Positions 1,440-24,156 of a DNA stretch of 24,156 nt are shown here, piece after piece. This stretch comes from a virus. Its lineage: Duplodnaviria; Heunggongvirae; Uroviricota; Caudoviricetes. The notes below the pieces were generated by a model, which was not told the origin of the DNA, made no database searches, and saw nothing but the letters and a program-made list of their open reading frames with translations. Each line of letters starts with the position of its first letter. Within the stretch, counting starts at the first letter, position 1. The stretch lies in the IMG/VR virus record IMGVR_UViG_644736359_000007, one strand, 5' to 3'. Position numbers and translations under genes: made by a program.

Positions 1440-1446
1440 CCGTTTC

Positions 1447-1533
1447 GCTGAAAAACATAACCCATAAAATGCTAGCTGTACCAGGAACCACCTCCTTAGC
1501 CTGTGTAATCTCCCTTACACGGGCTTATTTTTT
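1447..1533 (+). ncRNA. cyaR: CyaR (RyeE) Hfq-dependent small RNA
   Basis: 87-nt sequence GCTGAAAAACATAACCCATAAAATGCTAGC...CCTGTGTAATCTCCCTTACACGGGCTTATTTTTT matches the E. coli CyaR sRNA as I recall it, ending in an intrinsic terminator hairpin (CCTGTGTAA/TTACACGGG) plus U-tract; located immediately downstream of yegQ as in E. coli. Confidence 0.85.
1507..1533. mobile_element. Prophage attL: P2-type att core (AATCTCCCTTACACGGGCTTATTTTTT) overlapping the cyaR terminator
   Basis: 27-mer is the reverse complement of the P2 att core AAAAAATAAGCCCGTGTAAGGGAGATT (from memory); a second copy with one mismatch lies at 23653-23679 next to int. Confidence 0.8.
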
Positions 1534-2726: not shown

Positions 2727-3917
2727 TTAATTGCTGTTAACCGAGGTAACCAGACTTGCCAGGTATCTGGAAGTAATACGCTGGCGCAGGGTCAGGTTTT
2801 CGAGAGGAGGCACCGGGGTATAGTCGTAGTCGATATACAGTTTTCCGGCCTTGAGGGTTTCCGCATCATTGGCTTCTTCACTGAACCAGCATGTGCCATC
2901 CACGATATAACCGTTGTTTTTCAGTTCGCGGAATTTGGCATTAATGCCATCAATGATGTCACGAATCAGCGTTGCGGTAATTGGCTTATCAATAGCCCAC
3001 ATGTGCGCCTCGGCCATCGTGTCGGCCAGTACCTGCGCGGTGCGGGTGTAGCTTTCAAAGAGGAACAGCGGGTCATCAGAGCAGGTACGGTTACCCCAGA
3101 AGCGGAAGCCGTCGCGGCGAATCAGCGTAGTGATGCCTGACTCGTTAAGCAGGTCAGCATCAGTACCGGACTTCTGCAAATCCCAGAATACAGAGGCGCT
3201 GATGCCGGTAACACCATTTACCCCGACGTTGGACAGCGTTTTATGCCAGCCCTGCTCCTGGTCGATTTTGGCACGCAGCCCCAGCGCACGGGCGGTGGCA
3301 TACGCGGTGGCAGTGGTACTGGTAACCGTATCCCATGCGAGGAAATCCGGCCAGATGACCATCAGCTCACGCTGGCTGAAATTCTGACGGTAGGCTTTTG
3401 CCTCGGAAATGGTTTTACAGCCCCATGCGCTGATATACCCGAATGCATTCAGTTCCTGGCATACCGATGCCAGTGCGACGGCAACCTCTTTGGTGTCCAG
3501 CCCCGGCACACCAAGAATGCGCGGTTTAACGCCGGTAACCGACTCAGCCCCCATCAGGGCTTTCAGTCCGGTGTACTGACCGTTTTCGTCAGTGGTGCCG
3601 ATGATATTGGAAACGGTCTGCGCGAGTTTCGTTTCCTCGTCGTCGCCGGTGCCGTCTTCCACACGCACGACAACAGTGACCGGTTTTGACTGGTCGGCGA
3701 TAGCCTGCAACGACGCCGCCAGCGTGCCTTTTTTACCGGCCTTTGCAATTGCGCTCTGTACATTGGTAATCAGCACCGGTTTATTGACGGGGAAGGTTTC
3801 CGCATCCGCATCGCTGGCCGTGCAGACCATGCCGACAATGGCCGTGGATACGGTGGAAATGACGCGGGTGCCGTCGTTAATCTCCAGCACCTGCACGCCG
3901 TGATGATAGTCACTCAT
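2727..3917 (-). CDS. FI: Contractile tail sheath protein FI
   Basis: 396-aa product MSDYHHGVQVLEINDGTRVISTVSTAIVGMV... matches P2 gpFI from memory; start at ATG 3917 with GGAG RBS (8-nt spacer). The track ORF extends 50 codons further upstream without support. Confidence 0.9.
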   Translation of the reverse strand: MSDYHHGVQVLEINDGTRVISTVSTAIVGMVCTASDADAETFPVNKPVLITNVQSAIAKAGKKGTLAASLQAIADQSKPVTVVVRVEDGTGDDEETKLAQTVSNIIGTTDENGQYTGLKALMGAESVTGVKPRILGVPGLDTKEVAVALASVCQELNAFGYISAWGCKTISEAKAYRQNFSQRELMVIWPDFLAWDTVTSTTATAYATARALGLRAKIDQEQGWHKTLSNVGVNGVTGISASVFWDLQKSGTDADLLNESGITTLIRRDGFRFWGNRTCSDDPLFLFESYTRTAQVLADTMAEAHMWAIDKPITATLIRDIIDGINAKFRELKNNGYIVDGTCWFSEEANDAETLKAGKLYIDYDYTPVPPLENLTLRQRITSRYLASLVTSVNSN

Positions 3918-4387
3918 CCGTTTAACTCCGTGGTTAATGGGTGCAACTATTTTCTGTTGTGCGAAGCATGAGACGCTATTTGACCTGGCTGGGCAGTGGA
4001 TGAAACAACAGATAAAGAAAAAGTGGGCAACTTGCCCGCCTCTATTTATTGCGGTATACCCAGCCATTCAGGATTTGTTGCTACTCATAATTACCTGCAA
4101 AGAAACAAAGAAAAGATGAAAATACAAGCTGTCTGGTACAAAGAAATCCATCAGACTTCCAACACCCCATACATGTGCCCCCACCACGGTATGCTGCTCC
4201 GCTTCCCTTTGCGGATATTTTCTATCCATCGATTTTCAGCCAGGATATGCACGTGCGCGATGAAGAATGTCACACTACTATTGCCTTGTAAGCCCAGTTC
4301 CCGGTAAGAATAGCAACCAGCATCTGCGCTGCTACAGCACAAAGCGAGTGTATATTTGGGGGGAATATCCTTCATAAACTGTTCGAC

Positions 4388-6476: not shown

Positions 6477-9335
6477 TTATTCTGAAGTCTCCAACTTCAT
6501 CAAACGACGATTTAAGTCAACAAAGCGTTCCATTAACAAATCCACCTGGCTGACAACAGCACGTAGACACCACCAGAGAAGCTCCTCTTTCCGGAAGCGA
6601 TAACGGCTTCCTGCTTCGGTTGCAGGGCGAACAAGAACCCTTTCCGCCTGTCGGGTAAGCACACGAGTTGTCCCGCTCAACAGCTCCCCTTCATCCGAAT
6701 AAATCGCTGGCTGAACCGGAATATCTTCATACTCTTCCGGTATATCTTCGTACTGTGCCTCCTCCGCTTCCCACGAATCCAGACAAAATGCGCTGTATTT
6801 CCGCCAGTCCAGACCGTGTTTCTCCATCACCGCTATCGCGGCCTGGACTGTCGGCCCGGCGTGCAGACGCGCGTCCTCGCCCTCCTCCTCAATTCTCTGT
6901 AACCAGCGCCACACGCCCGGAAGCCGTGCTATTTCTGCAAATGCCGCGTTTTCGGCTGCCGTCGCATCGCGCGGTGTATCCTTTAACGTCGCATCCGACA
7001 CAACGGTCGGCGAGTTGCAGAGATACACGCTCCGGAACGCTTTGTTGGGCGCACCCAGGTCGCTGGTATTGTTAACCGATGGCCGGAATGCACCGTTAAT
7101 ATCTGTATCCATCTGCATGAATGCAGTGCCGTCACTACGGGCTGCAATTACATAAGCGTCAGCAGAATCGTCATAAATACCCAGATTCCCGGCTGTTGAT
7201 ACCTGGAAAGCTCCCGCCTTCAGCGTGGTGCTGATGGCCATGCGCTTCTGGGTTTCGTCATCCGATTTAATATTCACGCCCTGCAGGTATGCCACATTCC
7301 AGCGATTTGGCGATGACCCCAGATTCATTGCCTTGTCCTGGTCGGGATGAAATGCCGGCGAGACCGGACTCAATAATACAGACCAGGTCTCACTGCCATC
7401 GGTACAATAAAGCCTTGTGCGCCCCGCCGACTGAGTATCGTTCATTGAGTAAAGGTTAATCCCGCCACCGCTCAACAAATCCACGTCAGCGCGTATTTCC
7501 AGACAATCGTGCACGGTGTTCAGTCGGTGTTTCCACTGAACGAAGCGGCCTGTGTATTCTCCGGTTCGGAACGCATCCCCGTACAAACGAAAAACAGCAG
7601 CAGAAGTGTCTGTATCCGGAGCCTCCTTTCTGACCTCAAATAACGGGCGATGCGAGCGCAGATTCTGCTCATAGGCTGCCACCTGGAAGTCTTCATTGGG
7701 TGACAGGGCAATATTTACAGCATTGGGACTCAGAAAAAGGCTAGCATGGCTGTCAGGAAACGCCACGCCGGAGTCCACCAGATAGCCTGTGCCGTCGTAA
7801 GCCTCCACGGAAACCACAGCTTTGCTGCGTTTTGTCGCCACGCCACACGTATAAGACTTCGTGGCATCATATTTCGTTGCAGCCGCCGTTCCATATGCTG
7901 TAGGCGTCCAGTAAGATGGATTCACCGGGGAACGGCCAGAAAAATTTGTTGCACGTGCTGCAAAGTATGCCCCCTCAAAAGAAACCACATCTGCTGTCTG
8001 ACACCAGAAATCCATATCGAGCAGATACAGTTTTCCGTTATGAAGAGCCAGCCCTTCGGCTTCCTGCAAAACGGGATACCCCAGCTCTGCATTCCCCAGC
8101 ATTTTCTGGCGGCCATACCTGGCACGAACGCCATCCACATTGAACTGTCTGACAACTTCGCCCGTTGACAGGTTATATACAACAATGCGGTGAGTCAGAA
8201 ATACGCCTGTATAACCGTAATAAGCAAACAGATAATGACCATCGCTGGCCATCCCCTGAAATGCCTGCGACACCATTGACTGGGTGGACAGATAAATCCG
8301 GTGTTTAAACGTCAGAGAAGCGCGATCGAAAACATAAACTGTGCGGCGGTCATCCCTGTTGTAATGAAGATGGACGGCTTCATTACTTGACTGAACAATC
8401 AACAGGCTTCCGTCTACCGACAATGCCACCGTTATAATTTCATCCCCGGTAAAAAAGTCAGAGGTGAAAATCTCCGTACGGGTGACATCTGTCAGACTGG
8501 TGTCAGCCCCATTCCAGTTGATGATATTCACACCCTTGCCGTCAGCGGTCGGGGTATACAGCATCACGCGACCGTCTTCACATACAGCCCCGATACTCTG
8601 GTGACCAATATCAGCGAAAACGGGAGAAAACGAAATGACCGTCGGGTTTTCGTTTTCTCCGTCAGGGTTAAATGTCGTTTCAACAATCCTTACGCCACCC
8701 GATACAGGCTGATGCAGAAACATTCTGGTTCCCTGCGGCGTATCACAGATACAGAACCCCTGACTCATATTATCCGCACCGTCAAAAATCCCGGCGTAGT
8801 CAATATCGTGGACAACTTTATGCTGAAGAACCACATCATCAATGACAGTACGATGAAAACTGGATATGGCTTTATCGACGTAATCCTGCGTCGCCATCAC
8901 CGTGCTGGCATCAATACTCAGCTCAACAGACGCCACGTTACTGACAATAATAACCATGCGGCAGGTCTGCGCACGCCCGGAGCCTTCAGCCAGTTCAGGC
9001 TTATAGCTTTCTACCATGTTAGCGACCGCAATCAGTGTTCCGGCATCGTCATACAGACCAAGTTCACGCATCCAGAAGCCGCCCACTTCTGGCGGTACAA
9101 CCAGTTCAGCCACGATATAGTTTTTATTCTTGTTATCCACGCTGACTTTATTCAGGGCGTGACGCCAGACCTCATGCACCAGTTTCGTCTGACCAGCATC
9201 CGGCACCGGCAATTTGCCATTACCGTCACCCACGGCCATTGCAGACAGGGTTACTTTTTTCCCGCCGGGGACAGTGGCGGCTGCCAGCTTTGCGGCTCCG
9301 GCAGTAGTGATAACGGTTTTAAATTTCGTGCTCAT
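6477..9335 (-). CDS. H: Tail fibre protein (P2 gpH-like N-terminal anchor domain with a divergent, longer distal region)
   Basis: N-terminal ~150 aa (MSTKFKTVITTAGAAKLAAAT...WRHALNK...GGFWMRELGLYDDAGTLIAVANM...) matches P2 gpH from memory; 952 aa versus 669 aa in P2; positioned directly after gene I as in P2. Confidence 0.8.
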   Translation of the reverse strand: MSTKFKTVITTAGAAKLAAATVPGGKKVTLSAMAVGDGNGKLPVPDAGQTKLVHEVWRHALNKVSVDNKNKNYIVAELVVPPEVGGFWMRELGLYDDAGTLIAVANMVESYKPELAEGSGRAQTCRMVIIVSNVASVELSIDASTVMATQDYVDKAISSFHRTVIDDVVLQHKVVHDIDYAGIFDGADNMSQGFCICDTPQGTRMFLHQPVSGGVRIVETTFNPDGENENPTVISFSPVFADIGHQSIGAVCEDGRVMLYTPTADGKGVNIINWNGADTSLTDVTRTEIFTSDFFTGDEIITVALSVDGSLLIVQSSNEAVHLHYNRDDRRTVYVFDRASLTFKHRIYLSTQSMVSQAFQGMASDGHYLFAYYGYTGVFLTHRIVVYNLSTGEVVRQFNVDGVRARYGRQKMLGNAELGYPVLQEAEGLALHNGKLYLLDMDFWCQTADVVSFEGAYFAARATNFSGRSPVNPSYWTPTAYGTAAATKYDATKSYTCGVATKRSKAVVSVEAYDGTGYLVDSGVAFPDSHASLFLSPNAVNIALSPNEDFQVAAYEQNLRSHRPLFEVRKEAPDTDTSAAVFRLYGDAFRTGEYTGRFVQWKHRLNTVHDCLEIRADVDLLSGGGINLYSMNDTQSAGRTRLYCTDGSETWSVLLSPVSPAFHPDQDKAMNLGSSPNRWNVAYLQGVNIKSDDETQKRMAISTTLKAGAFQVSTAGNLGIYDDSADAYVIAARSDGTAFMQMDTDINGAFRPSVNNTSDLGAPNKAFRSVYLCNSPTVVSDATLKDTPRDATAAENAAFAEIARLPGVWRWLQRIEEEGEDARLHAGPTVQAAIAVMEKHGLDWRKYSAFCLDSWEAEEAQYEDIPEEYEDIPVQPAIYSDEGELLSGTTRVLTRQAERVLVRPATEAGSRYRFRKEELLWWCLRAVVSQVDLLMERFVDLNRRLMKLETSE

Positions 9336-12635: not shown

Positions 12636-12672
12636 TAAACATTGAGCGACCAGCATGGCCGCTCAATGTTTA
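12636..12672. repeat. Perfect 13-bp inverted repeat (TAAACATTGAGCG ... CGCTCAATGTTTA) with 11-nt loop between convergent coding regions
   Basis: Seen directly in sequence; lies between the membrane-protein stop (12630) and the stop of the minus-strand fragment (12692); possible bidirectional terminator or rearrangement scar. Confidence 0.5.
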
Positions 12673-12694
12673 ATTGCGCATCAGCCTCTGCCTG

Positions 12695-12955
12695 GATAAA
12701 ACTAACGCTCAAGGTGAGCCAGGATAATCTCTTCAATCATCTGCACATCCTCACCGGTAAAGCCGAGCAGAGGACGCGCCGGATAATCAATTTTCTTACC
12801 GTCTTTCCGGGTTTCTTCCGACAGACCGAACTGATGCACACTGGCGATTTTCGGCGACTTTCCCAGCAGGATTTCAGCCGCTTTGTGCTGGATTTTCTGG
12901 TGTTCGGTAATGCGTTTCTGGAAAAGCGTTACAGCACCACCGGTAAGGTCATCAG
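12695..12955 (-). pseudogene. Orphan 3' fragment (87 codons) of an unidentified gene on the minus strand
   Basis: Minus-strand frame translates to GFQSDDLTGGAVTLFQKRITEHQKIQHKAAEILLGKSPKIASVHQFGLSEETRKDGKKIDYPARPLLGFTGEDVQMIEEIILAHLER-stop using preferred E. coli codons (CTG, CCG, GGT, CGT), whereas the overlapping + strand track ORF uses rare codons (AGG, CGG, ATA, CGA); no start codon; bounded upstream by an in-frame stop at the junction with the Q fragment. Confidence 0.5.
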
Positions 12956-12958
12956 ACT

Positions 12959-13616
12959 GGAAACCTCACCGGCAAAATATACCCGCCGTGGCGTGGAGGA
13001 GGATGTTTACTGGTGGGTGCCGTCCTTCAACGAACCGACAGCCTTCGCGCCCGGTTCCGTGTTTCACCTGCTGGAGCCCGATATTAATCAGGAGCTGTAC
13101 GGCCTGCCGGAATATCTCAGCGCCCTTAACTCTGCCTGGCTGAATGAGTCGGCCACGCTGTTCCGCCGCAAGTATTACGAAAACGGCGCACATGCCGGAT
13201 ACATCATGTACGTCACTGATGCCGTGCAGGATCGCAACGATATCGAAATGCTTCGCGAAAACATGGTGAAGTCGAAAGGCCGCAACAACTTTAAAAACCT
13301 GTTTCTCTATGCCCCACAGGGAAAAGCCGACGGCATTAAAATTATCCCGCTCAGTGAAGTGGCGACGAAGGACGATTTTTTTAATATCAAAAAAGCCAGT
13401 GCCGCAGACCTGCTGGACGCGCACCGCATCCCCTTTCAGTTGATGGGCGGCAAGCCGGAGAACGTCGGGTCGCTGGGTGATATTGAGAAAGTGGCAAAGG
13501 TCTTTGTCCGCAATGAGCTTATCCCGTTACAGGACAGGATCCGTGAGATAAACGGCTGGCTCGGTCAGGAGGTCATCCGCTTTAAAAACTACTCACTGGA
13601 CACTGACAACGGCTGA
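12959..13616 (+). pseudogene. Q: 3' fragment of portal (capsid vertex) protein gene Q
   Basis: C-terminal ~219 codons (…GLPEYLSALNSAWLNESATLFRRKYYENGAHAGYIMYV…RFKNYSLDTDNG) with good codon usage, ending next to cos as P2 Q does; the 5' ~125 codons and upstream gene P are absent. The 324-aa track ORF begins at a TTG and its first ~105 codons are non-coding read-through. Confidence 0.65.
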
Positions 13617-13931: not shown

Positions 13932-15902
13932 TTAAAGGTCATCAATTAAACCTAAAGGCAAACCATCCTCACCAACCGAGCTATAATGAGCGATAATATT
14001 CGAAAGTTCACCAGTAGAAAACGAATTAGGCAAATCATTATCAACTAATATAATCTGGCACGGAACATTTTTTCTTTCTGCTTTTTGAACTGTATTCAAT
14101 AGTTGCTCATAAATATTTTGATACTTCATCGGGTCTGACATCCCCTCAAGGTCATCCTCGACTGCAAGAGTTTCTTTTGAGTATTTTTCCTTGGTCTGTT
14201 TCCCTAAATATTTACCAACCGTATCAAATATCAAAAGTAAAGGATGGTTAACATTATGGTCTATTGCATAATCAAGAATAGACAAAAGATACCCAATAGA
14301 AGAAATAGTTCTCAAACCTCCGGACGTTATTTTAAAATATTCCTTTCCTCTTATAACAGGGGTGTAATATCTTTCAGAGATTTTTATCCCCGTTCTGTTT
14401 TTGATATTAATACCCTTCAAATACTGACTAAATCTATCACCTAAACCTTGTAAAATGCCTTCCATACTAGGTGCGTTTTTCTTTAACGCATCCAAGCGTT
14501 CAGTTAATGTTTCAATATCTTTTATCAGTACCTGATGCTTTTCAAGCAGTTCCTCTTGCTGGTTTCTAACCTTCAAATCTTTTACTAACTGCTCCCTAAC
14601 CTTCTCGTTTTTTGATATCTCTTTAATATAAAAATCTCTCTGAGTCAAGAATGGTGTAATCATTGACTGGCTTTCTTCGTCAATTAACTCTCTCAACTCG
14701 TCAAGTTGTTCATCTAATTCTTTTTTATAACCAGATTCTTTTTTTAATTTAAATGACATTTCTGAGATCATGTCATTAATATTTCGTCTACGTCGACTAA
14801 GTGAATTCAACTCTTCATTAAGATCTTTTTCTGATGAAATTTCAAATGGAAAATCGGAATCATCTATTTTAATGTGGCTATCACAGATCGGACAGGAAAA
14901 TACTTCCTTATCCAATACACCAATGCGAGAATTTGCTGTTTTAATCGCTTTGAGTTTTTCAATATCATTATCATAGTCATTTTTTAACCGCGAATATTTA
15001 TCAATCTTATCCTCAAGCGTGCTAATATTTAATATGCACTCCTTGTATTTAAGCGAAATAAAATTGTGGGCATCTTTCAATTCTGTATACTGCATGGAAT
15101 CCGCTTTCATATTTTTATCGAGAGCAGACAAACCTGCAACAAGTTCTTCTAAAATAAGATCTATCCTATTAATCTCATCATCAATTGATTCAATTGTTTC
15201 ATAGTCTGTATCGCGAAGAAATTCAGATATTATCTGATACTTCTTATTTAGTTCCGTTACTAAACTACTTTTTGCAGATATTTCACCTTGGAGTCTGGCG
15301 ATGCTTTCATCCAACACATTGAACATGTATTTAAAAACTTCTTTCGTAAATGCGTAACGGGACCAATCCTCCAATCGTAAGAATGATTTACTACCAATAT
15401 CATCCTGACTTACATAAACAAATTTATATATATTTCTAAAGCTTAACCTGCGCATCTGTGAATGTGCTTTAGAAGGAGACACCTTAATTTCAATTTTTGG
15501 AAAATTAAGACTATCAAGTAAAAACTCCGAAAAAACGCCATCAACATTTGATAAGGGGCTATAATTAGGAGCGTATTTTTTCGGAAAGTGTTTATGTAAA
15601 TCATCAAACTTACAACGATAAACTTCTATTGATTTTTTATGATCATAGATATCTCTTACGATTGTGAATACAGTATCATTGATCACTACTTCAAGAGCAG
15701 CATAGTTTACTGATGTTTTTATTTCATCTGCTAAATCTATAGAACTAGCACCTAAAAGATAATTAATAAACTCCAGAATACTTGACTTACCTGTGTCAGA
15801 GTCTCCGTAGATAACATTGAGACCTTTATAAAAAGTAGTGACGTAGTTTTTACGAACGCCAACAAGAATCAAACTATTGATATTGAGATATGATTTCATC
15901 AT
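13932..15902 (-). CDS. Rad50/SbcC/SMC-like ABC ATPase with central coiled coil and CPxC zinc-hook motif (candidate LmuB-like)
   Basis: 656 aa; Walker A GDSDTGKSS (about 15781-15807); long heptad-like charged region; CPICD near the middle (about 14878-14892); ABC signature ITSGG (about 14311-14322); Walker B HPLLLIFD (about 14221-14250). AAGGAG RBS; start ATG 15902 or 15899; ATGA overlap with the upstream gene stop. Confidence 0.7.
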   Translation of the reverse strand: MMKSYLNINSLILVGVRKNYVTTFYKGLNVIYGDSDTGKSSILEFINYLLGASSIDLADEIKTSVNYAALEVVINDTVFTIVRDIYDHKKSIEVYRCKFDDLHKHFPKKYAPNYSPLSNVDGVFSEFLLDSLNFPKIEIKVSPSKAHSQMRRLSFRNIYKFVYVSQDDIGSKSFLRLEDWSRYAFTKEVFKYMFNVLDESIARLQGEISAKSSLVTELNKKYQIISEFLRDTDYETIESIDDEINRIDLILEELVAGLSALDKNMKADSMQYTELKDAHNFISLKYKECILNISTLEDKIDKYSRLKNDYDNDIEKLKAIKTANSRIGVLDKEVFSCPICDSHIKIDDSDFPFEISSEKDLNEELNSLSRRRRNINDMISEMSFKLKKESGYKKELDEQLDELRELIDEESQSMITPFLTQRDFYIKEISKNEKVREQLVKDLKVRNQQEELLEKHQVLIKDIETLTERLDALKKNAPSMEGILQGLGDRFSQYLKGINIKNRTGIKISERYYTPVIRGKEYFKITSGGLRTISSIGYLLSILDYAIDHNVNHPLLLIFDTVGKYLGKQTKEKYSKETLAVEDDLEGMSDPMKYQNIYEQLLNTVQKAERKNVPCQIILVDNDLPNSFSTGELSNIIAHYSSVGEDGLPLGLIDDL

Positions 15903-16264
15903 TTCTCCTTGAAGACTTTGTTTATAACAGAGTTTAACTTAGAGGTAGGCAATGCTTGTAGCGGTAACAATGCTTCGGCTAGTCGTTTTATTTCTTTAAA
16001 ATATCCATCAGTCAATGAGCTAGCAAATTCCTTACCTTTTTCAGATAAAAATAATTTAACACTCTCATTATTTTTTTTCTCAGCTGAGAGCAATCCCCGC
16101 AATGACATAATTTTTATAAGATATTTCACTTTGGAATTGTCGAATAAGATATCTACATTTGATGAAAAACTCTTTATTGTATAAGTTAACTGGGACTCGA
16201 CACAAGCAGGCTTTTTCCCCGAAACTGTAAGAGCACAATCAATTTTTGATGGATTTTTTATCAC
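15899..16264 (-). CDS. Small hypothetical protein encoded between the hydrolase and the ATPase (candidate LmuC-like accessory)
   Basis: 121-codon ORF (GTG start at 16264; alternative ATG at 16108 would give 70 aa); stop overlaps the ATPase start (ATGA), indicating translational coupling; AT-rich. Confidence 0.5.
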   Translation of the reverse strand: MIKNPSKIDCALTVSGKKPACVESQLTYTIKSFSSNVDILFDNSKVKYLIKIMSLRGLLSAEKKNNESVKLFLSEKGKEFASSLTDGYFKEIKRLAEALLPLQALPTSKLNSVINKVFKEK

Positions 16265-16399
16265 AGATACATAAAAATTTGTATTTTATTAATATCTAAT
16301 GACAACACTCCTTTTTTACTATGAGATAATATAGATATAGCAATGGCAAGCATAGCAAAATTCAAACTATACTCTTCATCAAGAGGTATATACGGCAAG

Positions 16400-17623
16400 T
16401 TATTTTTCTTCATGATTACCTCGCCGTAATTGCTCCAAAGTTTCTACGCTGGTTTCAGATGACCAGACAATATCCCTGTCATTTTTGTTAGCCAGTTGAT
16501 GCAACATTCCTTTCTTATGTATCGTTTCCAAACTTTTTATAAGAGAATCTAACGACGACTTATCCTCCTGGGTTATTCGTCTATGAACAGCAGCAATAAA
16601 TTTATCTGGGGAAATTGAATTTGCAATGTATTGCTCATACTCTTCCTGGTAAATCTCCCTTATTTTAGAATACAAATGACCAAGTTGTTTTCTATCGTAA
16701 TCACTCGTAAAAATATTTCTCGCAAGCTCAGCATTATAATAATATTCCTTTGCATGCAGAGCGATATCCTGATGTATATCTGCGACAATCATTTTTAAGA
16801 CGAAATACTCATTATCATATTGTTTATCATCAGAAAAACGCTCAACGCAAATCTTCTTGGGTGCTTCTAAATTTATCTGCTGAATAAATTGCTTTACCGC
16901 AACAAACACTGTAGACGAGCTATTTTCGGGCTTGCAAATTGAGCTATGCCCTTCATTAACTGCAATTGAGTTATGTCGTTCACTATCCATCGGTAATGCG
17001 CTTTTTTTATCGACTATAGTGTCATGAGATCCATAAACATATCTAGTGATAGGAAGTTTTTTGCTACAATTTATCCAGCGCCTATTCAATGTATCAGTCG
17101 CTTCACTTAACAATCCAAGATCTACTAACTGAGCATTTGAAGATACCATTGAAGTTATATTCGCTAATTTAGCACCAAAGTGAGGGACTGCTAACGAAAT
17201 GAATCCAATTATATTAGATTGTTCCTCATGCTCAACTTTTTTTAGAATTAGATTTTTTGATATTAACCCCCCCATACTATGGGCGATTATTATAATTCGA
17301 GAGTAATCACTTAGTGTTACTCTAATCTCAGTATACAATAACTCAGCTATTTCATCAGTTGGTAAATTTCTCTCTAACTTATTTTTCTTAAAGAAAATAC
17401 GAGCCAAGAATCCTGACGTTTTAGCATACGTTTGTGTGAATTTAGTAAAATAATTGAAACATGCAATATCAAATACGTTGCTAATATCTTCATCTTCTGC
17501 TAATAGTTTTGGAAATGAAATTTCTTTATTAAAGTTCCATGTTTCCAAACCACCATTTAATCCATGTACAAATAGTATCAGGCTATCTTTTTTCTCGTGG
17601 CTTATCCATTCAACCATGCTCAT
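16400..17623 (-). CDS. Alpha/beta-hydrolase (lipase/esterase-like) domain protein with a C-terminal helical domain (candidate LmuA-like effector)
   Basis: 407 aa; N-terminal LILFVHGLNGG and nucleophile-elbow IIIAHSMGGL (GXSXG-type, about 17267-17284), then candidate Asp (GSHDTIVD) and His (NEGHSSIC) in Ser-Asp-His order; C-terminal ~160 aa charged/helical; sigma70-like promoter (TTGTTT-N16-TATACA) just upstream. Confidence 0.7.
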   Translation of the reverse strand: MSMVEWISHEKKDSLILFVHGLNGGLETWNFNKEISFPKLLAEDEDISNVFDIACFNYFTKFTQTYAKTSGFLARIFFKKNKLERNLPTDEIAELLYTEIRVTLSDYSRIIIIAHSMGGLISKNLILKKVEHEEQSNIIGFISLAVPHFGAKLANITSMVSSNAQLVDLGLLSEATDTLNRRWINCSKKLPITRYVYGSHDTIVDKKSALPMDSERHNSIAVNEGHSSICKPENSSSTVFVAVKQFIQQINLEAPKKICVERFSDDKQYDNEYFVLKMIVADIHQDIALHAKEYYYNAELARNIFTSDYDRKQLGHLYSKIREIYQEEYEQYIANSISPDKFIAAVHRRITQEDKSSLDSLIKSLETIHKKGMLHQLANKNDRDIVWSSETSVETLEQLRRGNHEEK

Positions 17624-17711: not shown

Positions 17712-19994
17712 CTACCACTCACGCTGTCTGTCAAAAAAGTCGATATCGGTATCAAATTTAAAACGCTTATGCCCAAAATCCAAAACAGCTCCGCGAGCGA
17801 GAGCTTCAAGCTCCCAATAACTAGCCTGAATGTCACTTTGTGCAAGAAGAACCTTAATTTTCGGGATAGTCTTTCTCTCCTGCCTTGTCAACCGGGCGGA
17901 TGGGGCAGGAAAGTAGCTTCGACCATTGAAAGGAGTAAAGCTCTGCTGTGAACGATTACTGCATTTCAGTTCATTACTCAATAAGTCTCTAAGTACCTTC
18001 ATAATGCCTGGCTCGGTCCAACTTAGAATCCCTTCATCTATAAAATTTAACACCGCTGCAGCATGCTCAGTCGGTGTGGGAGCCGATAACGAAGTATCAC
18101 CACCGGTGAGCTTTCCACAGTTATTGACAGGACTCCGAGGCGCGGCGATGCCGCTTTTTAAAGTCAAAGGCTCCACGACCGGAACTTTCGGCACAATGCG
18201 CCAGTCCGTCGTTCTGGTGATATGAATATGACGCGCGCCGAGATGCGGCGCGTAAATGCCGACCACTCTCTCGACTTCTTCCTCGTACTCGTTAACTTCA
18301 TCCGACGGGCTACGGGCGACTCTGACAGTCTGGCAATCGCGCGGAACATTTGCCCCACCCTGCGCACTGATATACAACGCAAAATCGCCACTGTCTGCGG
18401 CAGCGCGTGCAGCCTCGACGCGTTCGTCAAACTCATCAGCAATGCTGACGCCGCGAGGCAATTTGCGTAGTTCACGGTAAGCCCCCATTGTCGGCAGACC
18501 AACCGTTTTAAATTGCGGGATGCGCCACGTTGACGCCCATGCAGTAACAGCCGCGGCAGTATCTTTCAGAGGTCTGCCGGTATCGTTATCGAGCTGACCA
18601 TCCAGTGCATAGCCGTCGATGTTTTTTGAGATGTATTTCGCGATATACCCCGCAGCACCGCCCCGATTAAGGTGTTTTGCCTGAAAACGGTTTCGCGCGG
18701 CTCCTCTTTCGTCGCCATCCTCTTTGAGCGCATAGCGACGCATGATTTCGATAATCTGGTTACGCTGGCGCGGATTACAAAAAAGCATCATATGCCAGTG
18801 CGGCGTTCCGTCGTGATGTGGCTCGACGACACGCAAACCGTAGACCTGTAAATCATTATCCTTGAATGCCGTGCGCATCAGGCTCCAGATACGGCAGAGA
18901 TAACGCTGCGCATCCTTTGGATTAAATGCCTCATCGTTCCAGCCGTGATTTAGCTGGACGGTTTTACTTTCGCCTTTTCCAACCTGACGTGTCGGGTGAT
19001 ACTTTGACGGCGCGGTCAGCGTGATAAACATCCCCACATCACCCTCTGCTGCGGCGTAACGCTCAATACCGGCAATGGTGTTCATCAGCTCCATCCGGCG
19101 AATTTCAGGATTAGAAATACTGCCCATCACCTTACTGATAAGGTCGATGCGCTCGCCGGTTTCCCTGTTTTCGAGATCACACGATTTAAGAAATTCCAGA
19201 TTTGCCTGGCGGCGTGCACGCACATCACGAATGGCATGTTTACTGGCATAAGGAGAACGGTCTTTATTGACCTCCCCGACAGCAATCAGTAACGCCTCAT
19301 GCCAGCGCATACGCTGGCCTTTGAGCTGATGAGTCCACCACTCATCGTTAAACAGACGGGCAATGGCAGAATATGCCTGCCTCGTGGTCATCTGTCCTTT
19401 ACGGTATTTTTTCCAGTAAAGCGGGGAAATATTGAAAGCACGTGCAGCGCCAGCAACATGACCATAGAGGTGAGCCTGCGCCTCATCCGTAAACAGCGAT
19501 TCTTTTTCGCCATGTGCATCCACCCAGGCATCGCTGAGTTCCTCATACATCATGAAAAGCTGCGATGAGATACGGGCGGCAAACTTTTTCAGCTCCTTGT
19601 CATTCATTCCCGGCAGGCGCGCATAGTGGTCACGCTCTGCCAGAAACAGCAACGACGCGTCGGTGTTCATTTCATGGCGCTGATTCACACGCTCAATGCA
19701 CGGCCATAAACGACGCTGAAAAGTGGATGTGAGGAAATAAAACCCGTGCACCGGGCTTTTATTGCGCCGGATGTAGTCATAGTGTGAAGTAAACAGCGAG
19801 CGCAAAAAGTAAGGCAGGCGGTTAATCGTGGATAAAACACCTTGCACCTGACGCATCTCGTCACGTGTAAGGGGTCTTTCGCGCCCGACGGCCTCGCGTG
19901 GCGCGTTCCATGCATAAGCACCGGTAAACGTCTTACCGGTGCCTGCGGCAAATGCTGACGGAGGGACAAAACGCCCGGAGGCTTTAACGGCCAT
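17712..19994 (-). CDS. A: Replication initiation protein A (rolling-circle nickase)
   Basis: 761-aa product starting MAVKASGRFVPPSAFAAGTGK... matching P2 gpA over most of its length from memory; start set at ATG 19994 rather than the longer track ORF; C-terminal ~120 aa diverge from P2. Confidence 0.9.
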   Translation of the reverse strand: MAVKASGRFVPPSAFAAGTGKTFTGAYAWNAPREAVGRERPLTRDEMRQVQGVLSTINRLPYFLRSLFTSHYDYIRRNKSPVHGFYFLTSTFQRRLWPCIERVNQRHEMNTDASLLFLAERDHYARLPGMNDKELKKFAARISSQLFMMYEELSDAWVDAHGEKESLFTDEAQAHLYGHVAGAARAFNISPLYWKKYRKGQMTTRQAYSAIARLFNDEWWTHQLKGQRMRWHEALLIAVGEVNKDRSPYASKHAIRDVRARRQANLEFLKSCDLENRETGERIDLISKVMGSISNPEIRRMELMNTIAGIERYAAAEGDVGMFITLTAPSKYHPTRQVGKGESKTVQLNHGWNDEAFNPKDAQRYLCRIWSLMRTAFKDNDLQVYGLRVVEPHHDGTPHWHMMLFCNPRQRNQIIEIMRRYALKEDGDERGAARNRFQAKHLNRGGAAGYIAKYISKNIDGYALDGQLDNDTGRPLKDTAAAVTAWASTWRIPQFKTVGLPTMGAYRELRKLPRGVSIADEFDERVEAARAAADSGDFALYISAQGGANVPRDCQTVRVARSPSDEVNEYEEEVERVVGIYAPHLGARHIHITRTTDWRIVPKVPVVEPLTLKSGIAAPRSPVNNCGKLTGGDTSLSAPTPTEHAAAVLNFIDEGILSWTEPGIMKVLRDLLSNELKCSNRSQQSFTPFNGRSYFPAPSARLTRQERKTIPKIKVLLAQSDIQASYWELEALARGAVLDFGHKRFKFDTDIDFFDRQREW

Positions 19995-20259
19995 ATGAGC
20001 CAAAAGCCTCTGAACAACGCTTGCTGAGTTGCTCAACCTGCGCGTTTAAATCAGCAAAAGACTTTGCGCTTCCGGTAAGAATATCGTGATGCATCAGGCC
20101 GGAAACGAGCTGGCTTAATTTCGGGTAATAACCAACCACCGCCAGCCATTCCTGACCGGCGTTTTTACCGCTTTCCGCTCTCTTTTTCTCGTGGAGAATA
20201 AACTGAAAGCTGTCACTGGTAACGACATAACGTTCGCCAATTTCAATACGAATACTCAT
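19984..20259 (-). CDS. P2 early-region small protein (orf83-like)
   Basis: 91-aa ORF with GGAGAA RBS, immediately upstream of A and overlapping its start, as in the P2 B-A interval. Confidence 0.6.
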   Translation of the reverse strand: MSIRIEIGERYVVTSDSFQFILHEKKRAESGKNAGQEWLAVVGYYPKLSQLVSGLMHHDILTGSAKSFADLNAQVEQLSKRCSEAFGSYGR

Positions 20260-22559: not shown

Positions 22560-23573
22560 ATGGCAATCAAAAAACTCGATGATGGTCGATATGAAGTGGA
22601 CATCCGCCCTACTGGACGTAATGGAAAACGCATCCGTAGGAAGTTTGATAAGAAAAGCGAAGCTGTCGCTTTCGAAAAATACACGTTGTACAACCACCAC
22701 AATAAAAAATGGCTATCAAAACCAACAGACAAACGACGTCTGTCGGAACTGACACAGATCTGGTGGGATTTAAAGGGTAAACACGAAGAGCATGGGAAAT
22801 CTAATCTTGGAAAAATTGAAATCTTCACAAAAATAACGAATGACCCATGCGCATTTCAAATCACGAAATCCCTTATCAGCCAGTACTGCGCCACCCGAAG
22901 AAGTCAGGGTATTAAACCTTCGAGTATCAATCGTGATTTAACATGTATTAGCGGCATGTTTACAGCCCTGATTGAAGCGGAGTTATTCTTTGGTGAGCAC
23001 CCTATCAGAGGGACAAAGAGGCTTAAGGAGGAAAAACCAGAAACAGGCTATCTCACACAGGAAGAAATTGCCTTACTGCTTGCAGCACTTGACGGCGACA
23101 ATAAAAAGATTGCGATTCTTTGCCTGAGTACAGGAGCACGTTGGGGAGAAGCAGCTCGTTTGAAAGCAGAAAATATCATCCATAACCGCGTCACGTTTGT
23201 TAAAACGAAAACAAACAAACCACGCACCGTCCCGATCTCAGAGGCTGTTGCCAAAATGATCGCGGATAACAAACGAGGTTTTTTATTCCCTGATGCTGAT
23301 TACCCTCGCTTCAGACGAACAATGAAAGCAATAAAACCGGATTTGCCAACGGGGCAAGCCACACATGCACTAAGGCACAGCTTTGCCACTCATTTCATGA
23401 TTAATGGAGGAAGTATTATCACGCTACAACGGATACTAGGTCACACGCGGATTGAGCAAACTATGGTTTACGCTCATTTTGCGCCAGAGTACCTTCAGGA
23501 CGCCATTTCTCTTAATCCGCTAAGAGGTGGTACTGAGGCCGAGAGTGTCCACACAGTGTCCACAGTAGAGTAA
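22560..23573 (+). CDS. int: Tyrosine integrase
   Basis: 337-aa product MAIKKLDDGRYEVDIRPTGRNGKRIRRKFDKKSEAVAFEKY... with C-terminal catalytic residues (R...HALRHSFA...LGH...Y); GGAGGG RBS; adjacent to the att core. Confidence 0.9.
   Translation: MAIKKLDDGRYEVDIRPTGRNGKRIRRKFDKKSEAVAFEKYTLYNHHNKKWLSKPTDKRRLSELTQIWWDLKGKHEEHGKSNLGKIEIFTKITNDPCAFQITKSLISQYCATRRSQGIKPSSINRDLTCISGMFTALIEAELFFGEHPIRGTKRLKEEKPETGYLTQEEIALLLAALDGDNKKIAILCLSTGARWGEAARLKAENIIHNRVTFVKTKTNKPRTVPISEAVAKMIADNKRGFLFPDADYPRFRRTMKAIKPDLPTGQATHALRHSFATHFMINGGSIITLQRILGHTRIEQTMVYAHFAPEYLQDAISLNPLRGGTEAESVHTVSTVE
23545..23564. promoter_or_regulatory. Tandem direct repeats GTGTCCACA (x2, 11-bp period) inside the int 3' end: putative Int arm-type binding sites
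   Basis: Repeats seen directly; related GTCCACACA and GACCACAT motifs occur in the opposite arm next to attL (1574-1596); position about 90-110 bp from the att core. Confidence 0.4.
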
Positions 23574-23652
23574 CGTTTAAGGGCTTTCAGTGGTAATTTA
23601 TGCCGCTCAAACCCGCATTGTACCGTTGAAAGCCCCTACTGGTGACACCCTA

Positions 23653-23679
23653 AATATCCCTTACACGGGCTTATTTTTT
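23653..23679. mobile_element. Prophage attR: P2-type att core copy (AATATCCCTTACACGGGCTTATTTTTT, one mismatch)
   Basis: 23 of 27 positions form an identical run with 1511-1533; directly follows int. Confidence 0.75.
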
Positions 23680-23838
23680 TATGCATAAGCCCTATCTCTG
23701 GTAACCGTCTTCCATTGACCACATCGATAGAATCCTCCTTCATAGCACGATGCCTTTCACTTATCGGCATCGTGCTCCCACAGGTTCCGGCTACGCACAG
23801 CCAGAACGCGCATATTTGACGCTTACCAAAAAATATTC

Positions 23839-24156
23839 TCACTCTCCACATTTGAATGTCAGACGAGCGACACCATGTAATCCTACACCTTCTGTCTTCA
23901 GCTCAACTATTTGCATTTTTTTGCCCTGAGTAACACAGAAATGAGTTGCATCATTTTTTACTATATTTTCTGCACCAGATATTCTACCCCTGGCTAAAGA
24001 AGCTTCGGCTTCGGTGTAGTATTGGTTATCGAGTTTACGCTGAATATTACTTTTATATGCAAGACCAAATTTACCGATACTTGTCTCATCATTATGCACA
24101 GCACAACCAGACATAATAAAAATACTAATTAATGATATAGCAGCTATCTTTTTCAT
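23839..24156 (-). CDS. yegR: Small lipoprotein-like protein YegR
   Basis: 105-aa ORF with signal peptide and lipobox (IMSGC); recognised from memory as E. coli yegR, which flanks the cyaR-associated P2 remnant in K-12; start codon is the last three bases of the window. Confidence 0.75.
   Translation of the reverse strand: MKKIAAISLISIFIMSGCAVHNDETSIGKFGLAYKSNIQRKLDNQYYTEAEASLARGRISGAENIVKNDATHFCVTQGKKMQIVELKTEGVGLHGVARLTFKCGE

Follow-up and report, generated by a model that had tools for sequence, protein, structure and literature searches.

A degenerate P2-type attachment arm beside the cyaR core of Escherichia coli: the probable end of a much older P2-like prophage

The stretch of DNA analyzed here (24,156 nucleotides, IMG/VR virus record IMGVR_UViG_644736359_000007; hereafter the window) contains, in this order, the host gene yegQ (1-1362), the small RNA gene cyaR, a P2-like prophage of 22 kb and the orphan gene yegR on the minus strand (23839-24156). 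A first-pass annotation made from the letters of the window had noticed short repeats at both ends of this resident prophage and a partial copy of one of them in the host DNA beyond it, and had proposed that the former are binding sites for the integrase Int and the latter a leftover of a previous P2-like integration at that site. Both proposals were borne out by our analysis. The arm sites are textbook P2 attP arms and nothing new, while the relic is genuine, a prophage scar of great age. We consider it very probable that the outside copy is the ogr-side end of a much older, decayed P2-like prophage that had used the same attachment core in the cyaR terminator. This reading is built on homologies beside the core, on full-length versions of the relic in other genomes and on a matching second end beyond yegR, and for all of these the homologies themselves, their order, their orientation and their distribution were directly observed.

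The 15-mer CATTGACCACATCGA occurs exactly at 1582-1596, within the resident P arm, and again at 23713-23727 in the host DNA, where it begins 34 positions past the last base of the core, as had been described before. No other place in the window matches it with two or fewer mismatches, the expected count is 0.06, and two or more copies were found in 0 of 100 shuffled sequences. The imperfect similarity of about 35 bp reported around the outside copy was recovered as a local alignment of 36 columns (23692-23727) between the P2 P-arm segment and 23680-23880, which scored 38 compared with 14.9 ± 2.2 for dinucleotide shuffles (z = 10.6, 0/2000 shuffles). The phage arm homology lies directly beside the core, collinear with and in the orientation of the prophage, with z values from 10.6 to 13.1 across alleles. 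Alignments with full-length orthologues delimit the version in the window, a 'short' allele of a degenerate P2 module comprising the site for integration host factor (IHF) and the P arm, to 23680-23727 (hereafter the fossil P arm). Its first bases (23680-23688, TATGCATAA) are the counterpart of ACGCGTAAT in the phage, followed by the loss of an internal segment of about 16-20 bp, including the IHF-site part, that the window shares with K-12. The first arm heptamer (CGTCTTC, 23706-23712) is degenerate and matches the phage sequence GTCCACA at 1 of 7 positions, and the second (GACCACA, 23717-23723) is intact. As a functional arm-type site the segment is incomplete: it has neither a consensus repeat pair nor an IHF site between core and arm.

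Full-length versions of the fossil P arm were found in rare E. coli alleles and in Escherichia sp. MOD1-EC7003, which is taken to be a cryptic-clade strain (loci L019, L015 and L018). Directly after the core, E. coli M160133 reads ATGCGTAATTCAATGAAACAGAAGGAAGGATTCATACCTGGTTACCTCCTTCCATTGACCATATCGA, to be compared with ACGCGTAATACAATGAAATAAAAGGATTTATTTCTGGTCACGTCCACACATTGACCACATCGA in the resident phage, and the P2 P-arm segment aligned to these long alleles with z = 11.4 for M160133 and z = 13.1 for MOD1-EC7003 (both 0/2000 shuffles). A diverged IHF-site segment is retained only in these two alleles, and the M160133-type long left allele is rare, occurring in 18 of 5426 genomes. Alignment of the long alleles begins with the base that directly follows the core and extends to ...CATCGA. 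At this same base, every host allele loses its similarity to the phage, which goes on with the ogr terminator, while the host DNA goes on with TAGAAT..., a hairpin and yegR. The hairpin, an inverted repeat (AGCACGATGCC / GGCATCGTGCT, 23744-23776) that was read from the sequence and is kept among host alleles, lies between the fossil arm and the yegR stop codon, at the place where the phage has the ogr terminator. All host alleles also have derived changes in common, namely the ruined first arm heptamer, of which CTTCCATTGACC is left. These common changes, together with the identical breakpoint, point to one ancestral event followed by decay. In vB_YpM_46 and pro483, two P2-like phages with different cores and integrases, the IHF/P-arm module likewise adjoins the ogr terminator, and this linkage argues that the module belongs to the phages and not to the cyaR neighborhood.

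The other end of the older element was recognized outside the window, in the spacer between yegR and yegS. In E. coli M160133 and 2017-02-2CC, this spacer contains a collinear copy of P2 sequence in the same orientation, running from the second P' repeat through the Cox region into a degenerate core (CTGAATTCCCCATCCTTGAACTGATTTTTT compared with CTAAATCTCCCTTACACGGGCTTATTTTTT), in which about 19 of 30 positions match when counted by hand from the alignment. The P2 segment from P' arm to core scored 87 against the M160133 spacer (locus L019, 2485-2600) compared with 17.5 ± 2.3 for shuffled sequences (z = 29.8, 0/2000 shuffles). When the spacer was used as an independent query against the E. coli collection, it matched the 3' ends of 39 annotated P2-like integrase genes with 84% identity; against phage records it gave no P2 match at E <= 0.01, the match being too short for a database of this size. 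The right end is well preserved in 23 genomes. In K-12, where it lies at approximately 3739-3790 of the locus L002, and in most strains, only the core-proximal 40 bp or so are left, along with a piece on the upstream side of an internal deletion of some 75 bp. This second end appears to be a new observation; its P' arm, Cox region and core are degenerate but have the order and orientation that are expected. We found no description of the relic in the accessible literature; an earlier mention is possible, as key primary papers lie outside that literature.

The distribution of the relic was followed with the 221 bases after the int-side core (23680-23900), which 5417 of 5426 complete E. coli genomes contain next to yegR, the median being one place in each. 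A synthetic empty site, in which cyaR and the core were joined to the sequence from 23680 onward, matched over at least 80% of its length at one place in 4569 genomes, and the match is uninterrupted at 100% identity in many of them, for example in C43(DE3). Inspection of the K-12 locus, as the first-pass annotation had suggested, revealed the same relic flank, which there follows a young P2 remnant of its own (ogrK plus a gene D fragment) that ends in a partial core, tacacgggcttattttttt. In almost all E. coli, K-12 among them, the relic belongs to the normal empty attB, and it is peculiar neither to this strain nor to this lysogen. Since the flank is present species-wide, in empty sites and in K-12, it was not made in the present lysogen. 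A P2-type int-end junction at this flank was found in 810 of the 5426 genomes (approximately 15%).

According to the mechanism that we favor, an ancient P2-like prophage would have entered the cyaR core in an ancestor common to E. coli and the cryptic Escherichia clades, with subsequent decay. Its remains would be, in this order, the intact core, the degenerate P arm, an AT-rich interior with yegR and, toward yegS, a P' arm, a Cox region and a duplicate of the core, all degenerate. The first core is still intact because it is the cyaR terminator, whereas the duplicate beside yegS, without such a role, has decayed. Today's 'empty' attB would thus be the surviving ogr-side junction of the fossil, and later P2-like phages would re-use its core.

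The homology beside the core might instead have arisen in the opposite direction, if the P arm of P2-type phages had been taken from the chromosome downstream of cyaR, for example by aberrant excision, and the host copy were ancestral. The cores of phages that integrate into RNA genes are generally held to be host-derived, and the host copy lies immediately beside the core, as imprecise excision would need. However, P2-like phages whose cores and integrases are unrelated have the IHF/P-arm module tied to the ogr terminator, and the arm heptamers agree with the ones in the P' arm within int, as the phage requires. Furthermore, the host copy is degenerate, indel-ridden and polymorphic, whereas the phage copies are conserved, Kluyvera lacks the segment, and a capture of the arm cannot explain the degenerate int 3' end, Cox region and core beyond yegR. 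We regard such a capture as very unlikely and infer that the module passed from phage to host. Still less room is left for chance, a generic chromosomal motif or a recent strain-specific scar, such as that of a former tandem lysogen in E. coli B. The heptamer GWCCACA occurs nine times in the window compared with 4.1 expected, so that single heptamers are uninformative, but the 15-mer is exact, has the same orientation and lies at a similar distance from the core, and the observed values were reached in 0 of 100 and 0 of 2000 shuffles. The first-pass annotation had itself raised the alternative that the 15-mer is a widespread chromosomal motif; it was found at one locus per genome (median). A strain-specific scar disagrees with the presence of the relic in empty sites and in K-12, and together these explanations have a practically negligible probability.

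A further alternative accepts the heptamer in attB as a sequence under selection, either because binding of Int would favor capture at this site or alter excision, or because it belongs to a host element downstream of yegR. Most of the sampled alleles have the same 15-mer, which includes a perfect second P-arm repeat, although indels abound in the adjoining segment on the core side, and P2-type junctions are frequent at this flank (see the count above). The insertion point in the cyaR terminator is locI, the classical P2 site, which is reportedly the preferred P2 site in E. coli C, as ascribed to work by Barreiro and Haggard-Ljungquist from 1992. On the other hand, the 15-mer is conserved no better than neighboring host intergenic DNA such as the hairpin, the heptamer is mutated in M160133 (GACCATA) and the 15-mer is altered in S. 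flexneri, the partner repeat has been destroyed, and the common allele is without the IHF-site segment. For the preference of P2 for this site, the perfect identity of the 27-bp core would suffice. Selection on the heptamer is, on this evidence, quite improbable.

Several points nevertheless weigh against the derivation of the whole segment from an old P2-like prophage. No P2 protein-coding remnants were found in the interior, since a tblastn search of 158 stop-to-stop open reading frames of the prophage against five fossil alleles returned only noise. Homologues of YegR were not found in genuine phages: among 50,697 phage records searched with tblastn only two matched, and both include host flank. 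More distant YegR homologues, with 82-46% identity, are located in unrelated chromosomal contexts, one of them flanked by insertion sequence (IS) elements. With no P2 genes, no phage YegR and scattered YegR homologues, a phage derivation of the interior cannot be demonstrated. The K-12-type right end is not significant by itself (z = 2.2) and depends on alignment to the rare long allele. Kluyvera is the only readable outgroup with the same flanking genes, and comparison of its cyaR-yegS spacer with the yegS-proximal spacer of E. coli was not significant. Finally, the age of the event is only roughly bounded because E. albertii, E. fergusonii and Salmonella were missed by the cross-species scan, which was anchored on the exact 27-base 3' end of cyaR and returned 13 loci from Escherichia, Shigella, Kluyvera and Enterobacter hormaechei.

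Kluyvera species share the exact cyaR 3' end but are a distant outgroup; in them, yegS follows directly downstream of cyaR, without arm-like sequence or yegR. The Kluyvera spacer was tried as a model of the ancestral empty site and rejected (z = -1.0 and 0.4), and the ATCCTCC shared by the two after the T-run was not used as evidence. A second type of P2-like prophage, with a diverged P side (GCCTGTAATAAACTGAAATAAAAGAATTTATTTCTCTCAATGTCCACACATTGACCAC), was observed at the same cyaR core in E. coli ECDA1023 (L004) and in Kluyvera intermedia (L014), and the cyaR terminator is therefore a target common to different genera.

The interior of the fossil consists only of the hairpin, yegR and AT-rich DNA. 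The gene yegR (23839-24156, minus strand), annotated as YegR in E. coli genomes, encodes an orphan protein of 105 amino acids and is the sole open reading frame of the fossil, which ends on the right outside the window. The GC content is 36% in yegR and 33% in its upstream region, compared with 50-54% in yegQ and yegS, and this low value is compatible with a foreign origin, for which it is non-specific. YegR has a strong match in PHROG (phrog_21109), which probably has the same host-flank origin as the two phage records mentioned above. The copy of Pfam that was searched contained no YegR family, and in one homology search the homologues of PF27694 were almost exclusively from E. coli and Shigella. 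In Enterobacter sp. BIDMC 29 (L022, 4001-4318), a YegR homologue with 50% identity is located between IS elements and beside an omptin gene. Because the homologues occupy unrelated contexts, the YegR-family genes look like mobile orphan genes; two further apparent homologues with 74-76% identity were discarded, as they came from homopolymer errors in assemblies of E. coli. The gene yegR may have been carried by the old phage as cargo or may have arrived later. Many E. coli genomes contain about 170 extra bases just downstream of the yegR stop codon (at about 23829-23830 of the window; L018 1745-1880, also in L019 and L020) that are absent in K-12 and E. coli B and show as two-piece matches spanning 391 instead of 221 bases. 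A 10-codon open reading frame (ATG TGG TCA ATG GAA GAC GGT TAC CAG AGA TAG; 23692-23740, minus strand), starting 9 nucleotides past AAGGAGG, overlaps the fossil arm. It is probably due to chance, because other alleles (M160133, ECMA0423) have retained neither its start codon nor its Shine-Dalgarno-like sequence.

The repeats of the resident prophage itself correspond to known P2 sites. As had been noted, the 9-mer GTGTCCACA is present in tandem inside the 3' end of int: its only two exact copies in the window are at 23545-23553 and 23556-23564, with a period of 11 bp and within the last 30 bases of the gene. Taken alone, the 9-mer is unremarkable, as 3 copies with one mismatch were found compared with 3.9 expected, and it is the adjacent pair at that place that matters. 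On the opposite side, GTCCACAcattGACCACAtcga was found at 1575-1596, so that the start given earlier, 1574, was off by one. The P2 GenBank record AF063097 has features for Int ('P' arm', in the 3' end of int), the Cox region, the attP core, IHF, Int ('P arm') and the ogr terminator, and the same P2-type layout was found in the window, with the P' arm in the int 3' end, the P arm beside the ogr terminator, and the arms separated from the core by the IHF and Cox sites. The P' arm (23539-23565), with its two 9-mer repeats, is identical to the P2 feature at 27/27 positions, and the P arm (1569-1596), with the direct repeats GTCCACA (1575-1581) and GACCACA (1586-1592), again with an 11-bp period, at 28/28 positions. 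The Cox-binding region, which is placed by homology between the P' arm and the core (23563-23636), matches at 74/74 positions, and a predicted IHF-binding segment on the P-arm side (1532-1565) at 29/34. By their complete identity, the repeats are best regarded as the P' and P arm-type sites of P2 Int, which are already known. Binding of the N-terminal domain of Int at the resident arms would follow from the experimental annotation of the identical P2 sequence in AF063097. This annotation reportedly goes back to the footprint study of Yu and Haggard-Ljungquist from 1993. The pairs of direct repeats in both resident arms agree with the P2-type arm consensus tgTGGaCa, or tGtCCAca on the reverse complement (PMC3448106). 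P2 Int binds the core via its central and C-terminal domains and the arm repeats via its N-terminal domain, IHF bends the P side, and Cox, bound between P' arm and core, serves excision (PMC3448106, PMC3936717). The resident arms would work as in P2, flanking the 27-bp core together with the IHF and Cox sites. The names attL and attR used in the first-pass annotation hold for the orientation of the window only, because the P2 convention calls the ogr-side junction attR.

The core on the cyaR side (1507-1533) is identical to the 27-bp P2 attP core AATCTCCCTTACACGGGCTTATTTTTT at 27/27 positions, and the core on the int side (23653-23679) at 26/27, and within the window the 23-mer TCCCTTACACGGGCTTATTTTTT is present only in these two copies (1511-1533 and 23657-23679). 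The single difference is an A at 23656, where position 1510 and P2 have C. This A is either a variant of the incoming phage, with strand exchange to its right, or a later mutation. The small RNA gene cyaR (RyeE; 1445-1530, plus strand), whose terminator forms the attachment core, was identified with Rfam RF00112 (100.7 bits compared with a gathering score of 47; model positions 1-85 of 85, full length). In the short allele, an 8-bp inverted repeat (GGGCTTAT ... ATAAGCCC, 23667-23674 and 23685-23692) with a spacer of 10 nucleotides overlaps the tail of the cyaR terminator. As the long alleles lack this repeat, it arose when the IHF-site segment was lost.

Throughout its length, the window is 100% identical to strains of E. 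coli B, among them ATCC 11303 and strain B, and by this identity the resident element is identified as the defective P2-like prophage of E. coli B, located in the cyaR terminator between yegQ and yegR. It was inserted into the terminator by tyrosine-integrase site-specific recombination. The integrase gene int (22560-23573, plus strand) was recognized as an open reading frame with identity to P2: its last 521 bases and the DNA through the core (23053-23679) are identical to P2 at 624 of 627 positions, and the homologous gene in E. coli genomes is annotated as 'site-specific integrase'. The prophage (1534-23652) is defective and comprises about 22 kb. An open reading frame at 1935-2714 on the minus strand fuses the N-terminus of a head-closure protein (amino acids 1-100) to a gpD-like tail C-terminus (amino acids 85-258), a portal fragment is left at 12642-13616 on the plus strand, and no capsid or terminase genes are present between 1534 and 23652. 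A tail sheath gene (2727-4067), a gene for a tail spike or fiber of 952 amino acids (6477-9335) and gpA (17712-20036) are retained. Between the portal fragment and the replication gene A, a Lamassu anti-phage system is encoded on the minus strand (13932-17623), for which PADLOC identified LmuB (13932-15902, E=1e-233), LmuC (15899-16264, E=3e-34) and LmuA (16400-17623, E=1e-108). Its position is that of the tin/old cargo region of P2. In the BL21 derivative C43(DE3), the empty site is perfect and uninterrupted (100% identity over 315 bases), whereas other E. coli B strains carry the prophage. This perfectly empty site suggests clean site-specific excision in the BL21 lineage and a still working int/cox/att system in the defective prophage.

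Compared with the attP of P2 in AF063097, the window has the same order of ogr, P arm, core, P' arm and int, and its P' arm, Cox region and P arm agree base for base. In contrast to P2 attP, the IHF-site segment differs at 5 of 34 positions, the resident prophage is integrated and has its arms split between two junctions, and its 22 kb compare with 33.6 kb in P2. The remnant in K-12 (ogrK and the gene D fragment, yegZ) resembles the fossil in being a decayed P2-like element at the same cyaR-terminator site, in the same orientation and with an intact ogr-side junction. Unlike the fossil, it is young, being about 98% identical to living phages, keeps ogr and part of D, and has its partial core fused to D, whereas the fossil is roughly 65-75% identical by hand count from the alignments, contains no phage genes and is present in almost all E. 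coli. The fossil lies outside the K-12 remnant and is abutted by the partial core of the latter. In the K-12 locus (L002, 2773-3000), the gene D fragment is joined directly to the partial core (...gagaactctgc followed by tacacgggcttattttttt), which places one endpoint of the deletion inside the int-side core; compared with the intact D gene (2133-2150 of the window), the junction has little or no microhomology. With the lambda Int paradigm of heterobivalent integrases, the resident site has in common the short direct repeats on both sides of the core, their spacing by a helical turn (here 11 bp) and an IHF site between the core and one arm. The arm-type repeats are recognized by the integrase's N-terminal domain (PMC3448106). 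Different from this paradigm, in which the canonical attB is without arm-type sites, the attB described here has one intact leftover heptamer with a degenerate partner.

The fossil arm is probably non-functional, neutral DNA, because it has lost its partner repeat and, in the common allele, the IHF-site segment, because some alleles have a mutated heptamer, and because the 15-mer is not conserved beyond its surroundings; a lack of function is what we infer from these features. It is conceivable, if improbable, that locI is a 'pre-armed' fossil junction, at which the surviving heptamer, and in the rare alleles also the IHF-site segment, is still bound by Int and measurably changes recombination. 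If this were true, binding at the heptamer could add to the strong preference for locI, and excision could change as well, since the int-side junction would have arm-type sequence on both sides of the core in the lysogen. In either case, 'attB' fragments used in P2 recombination assays include one arm-type heptamer, which calls for caution.

If the favored reading is correct, the preferred P2 site, which has served as a model attB for decades, would be the surviving junction of an ancient P2-like prophage of which both ends can still be recognized. Repeated use of the site after that time is seen in the K-12 remnant, in the defective prophage of E. coli B and in about 15% of the complete genomes. 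The fossil would also account for yegR as an AT-rich orphan between cyaR and yegS, and it may serve as an example of how far an attachment junction decays when selection by the host, here for the terminator of a small RNA, holds the core alone.

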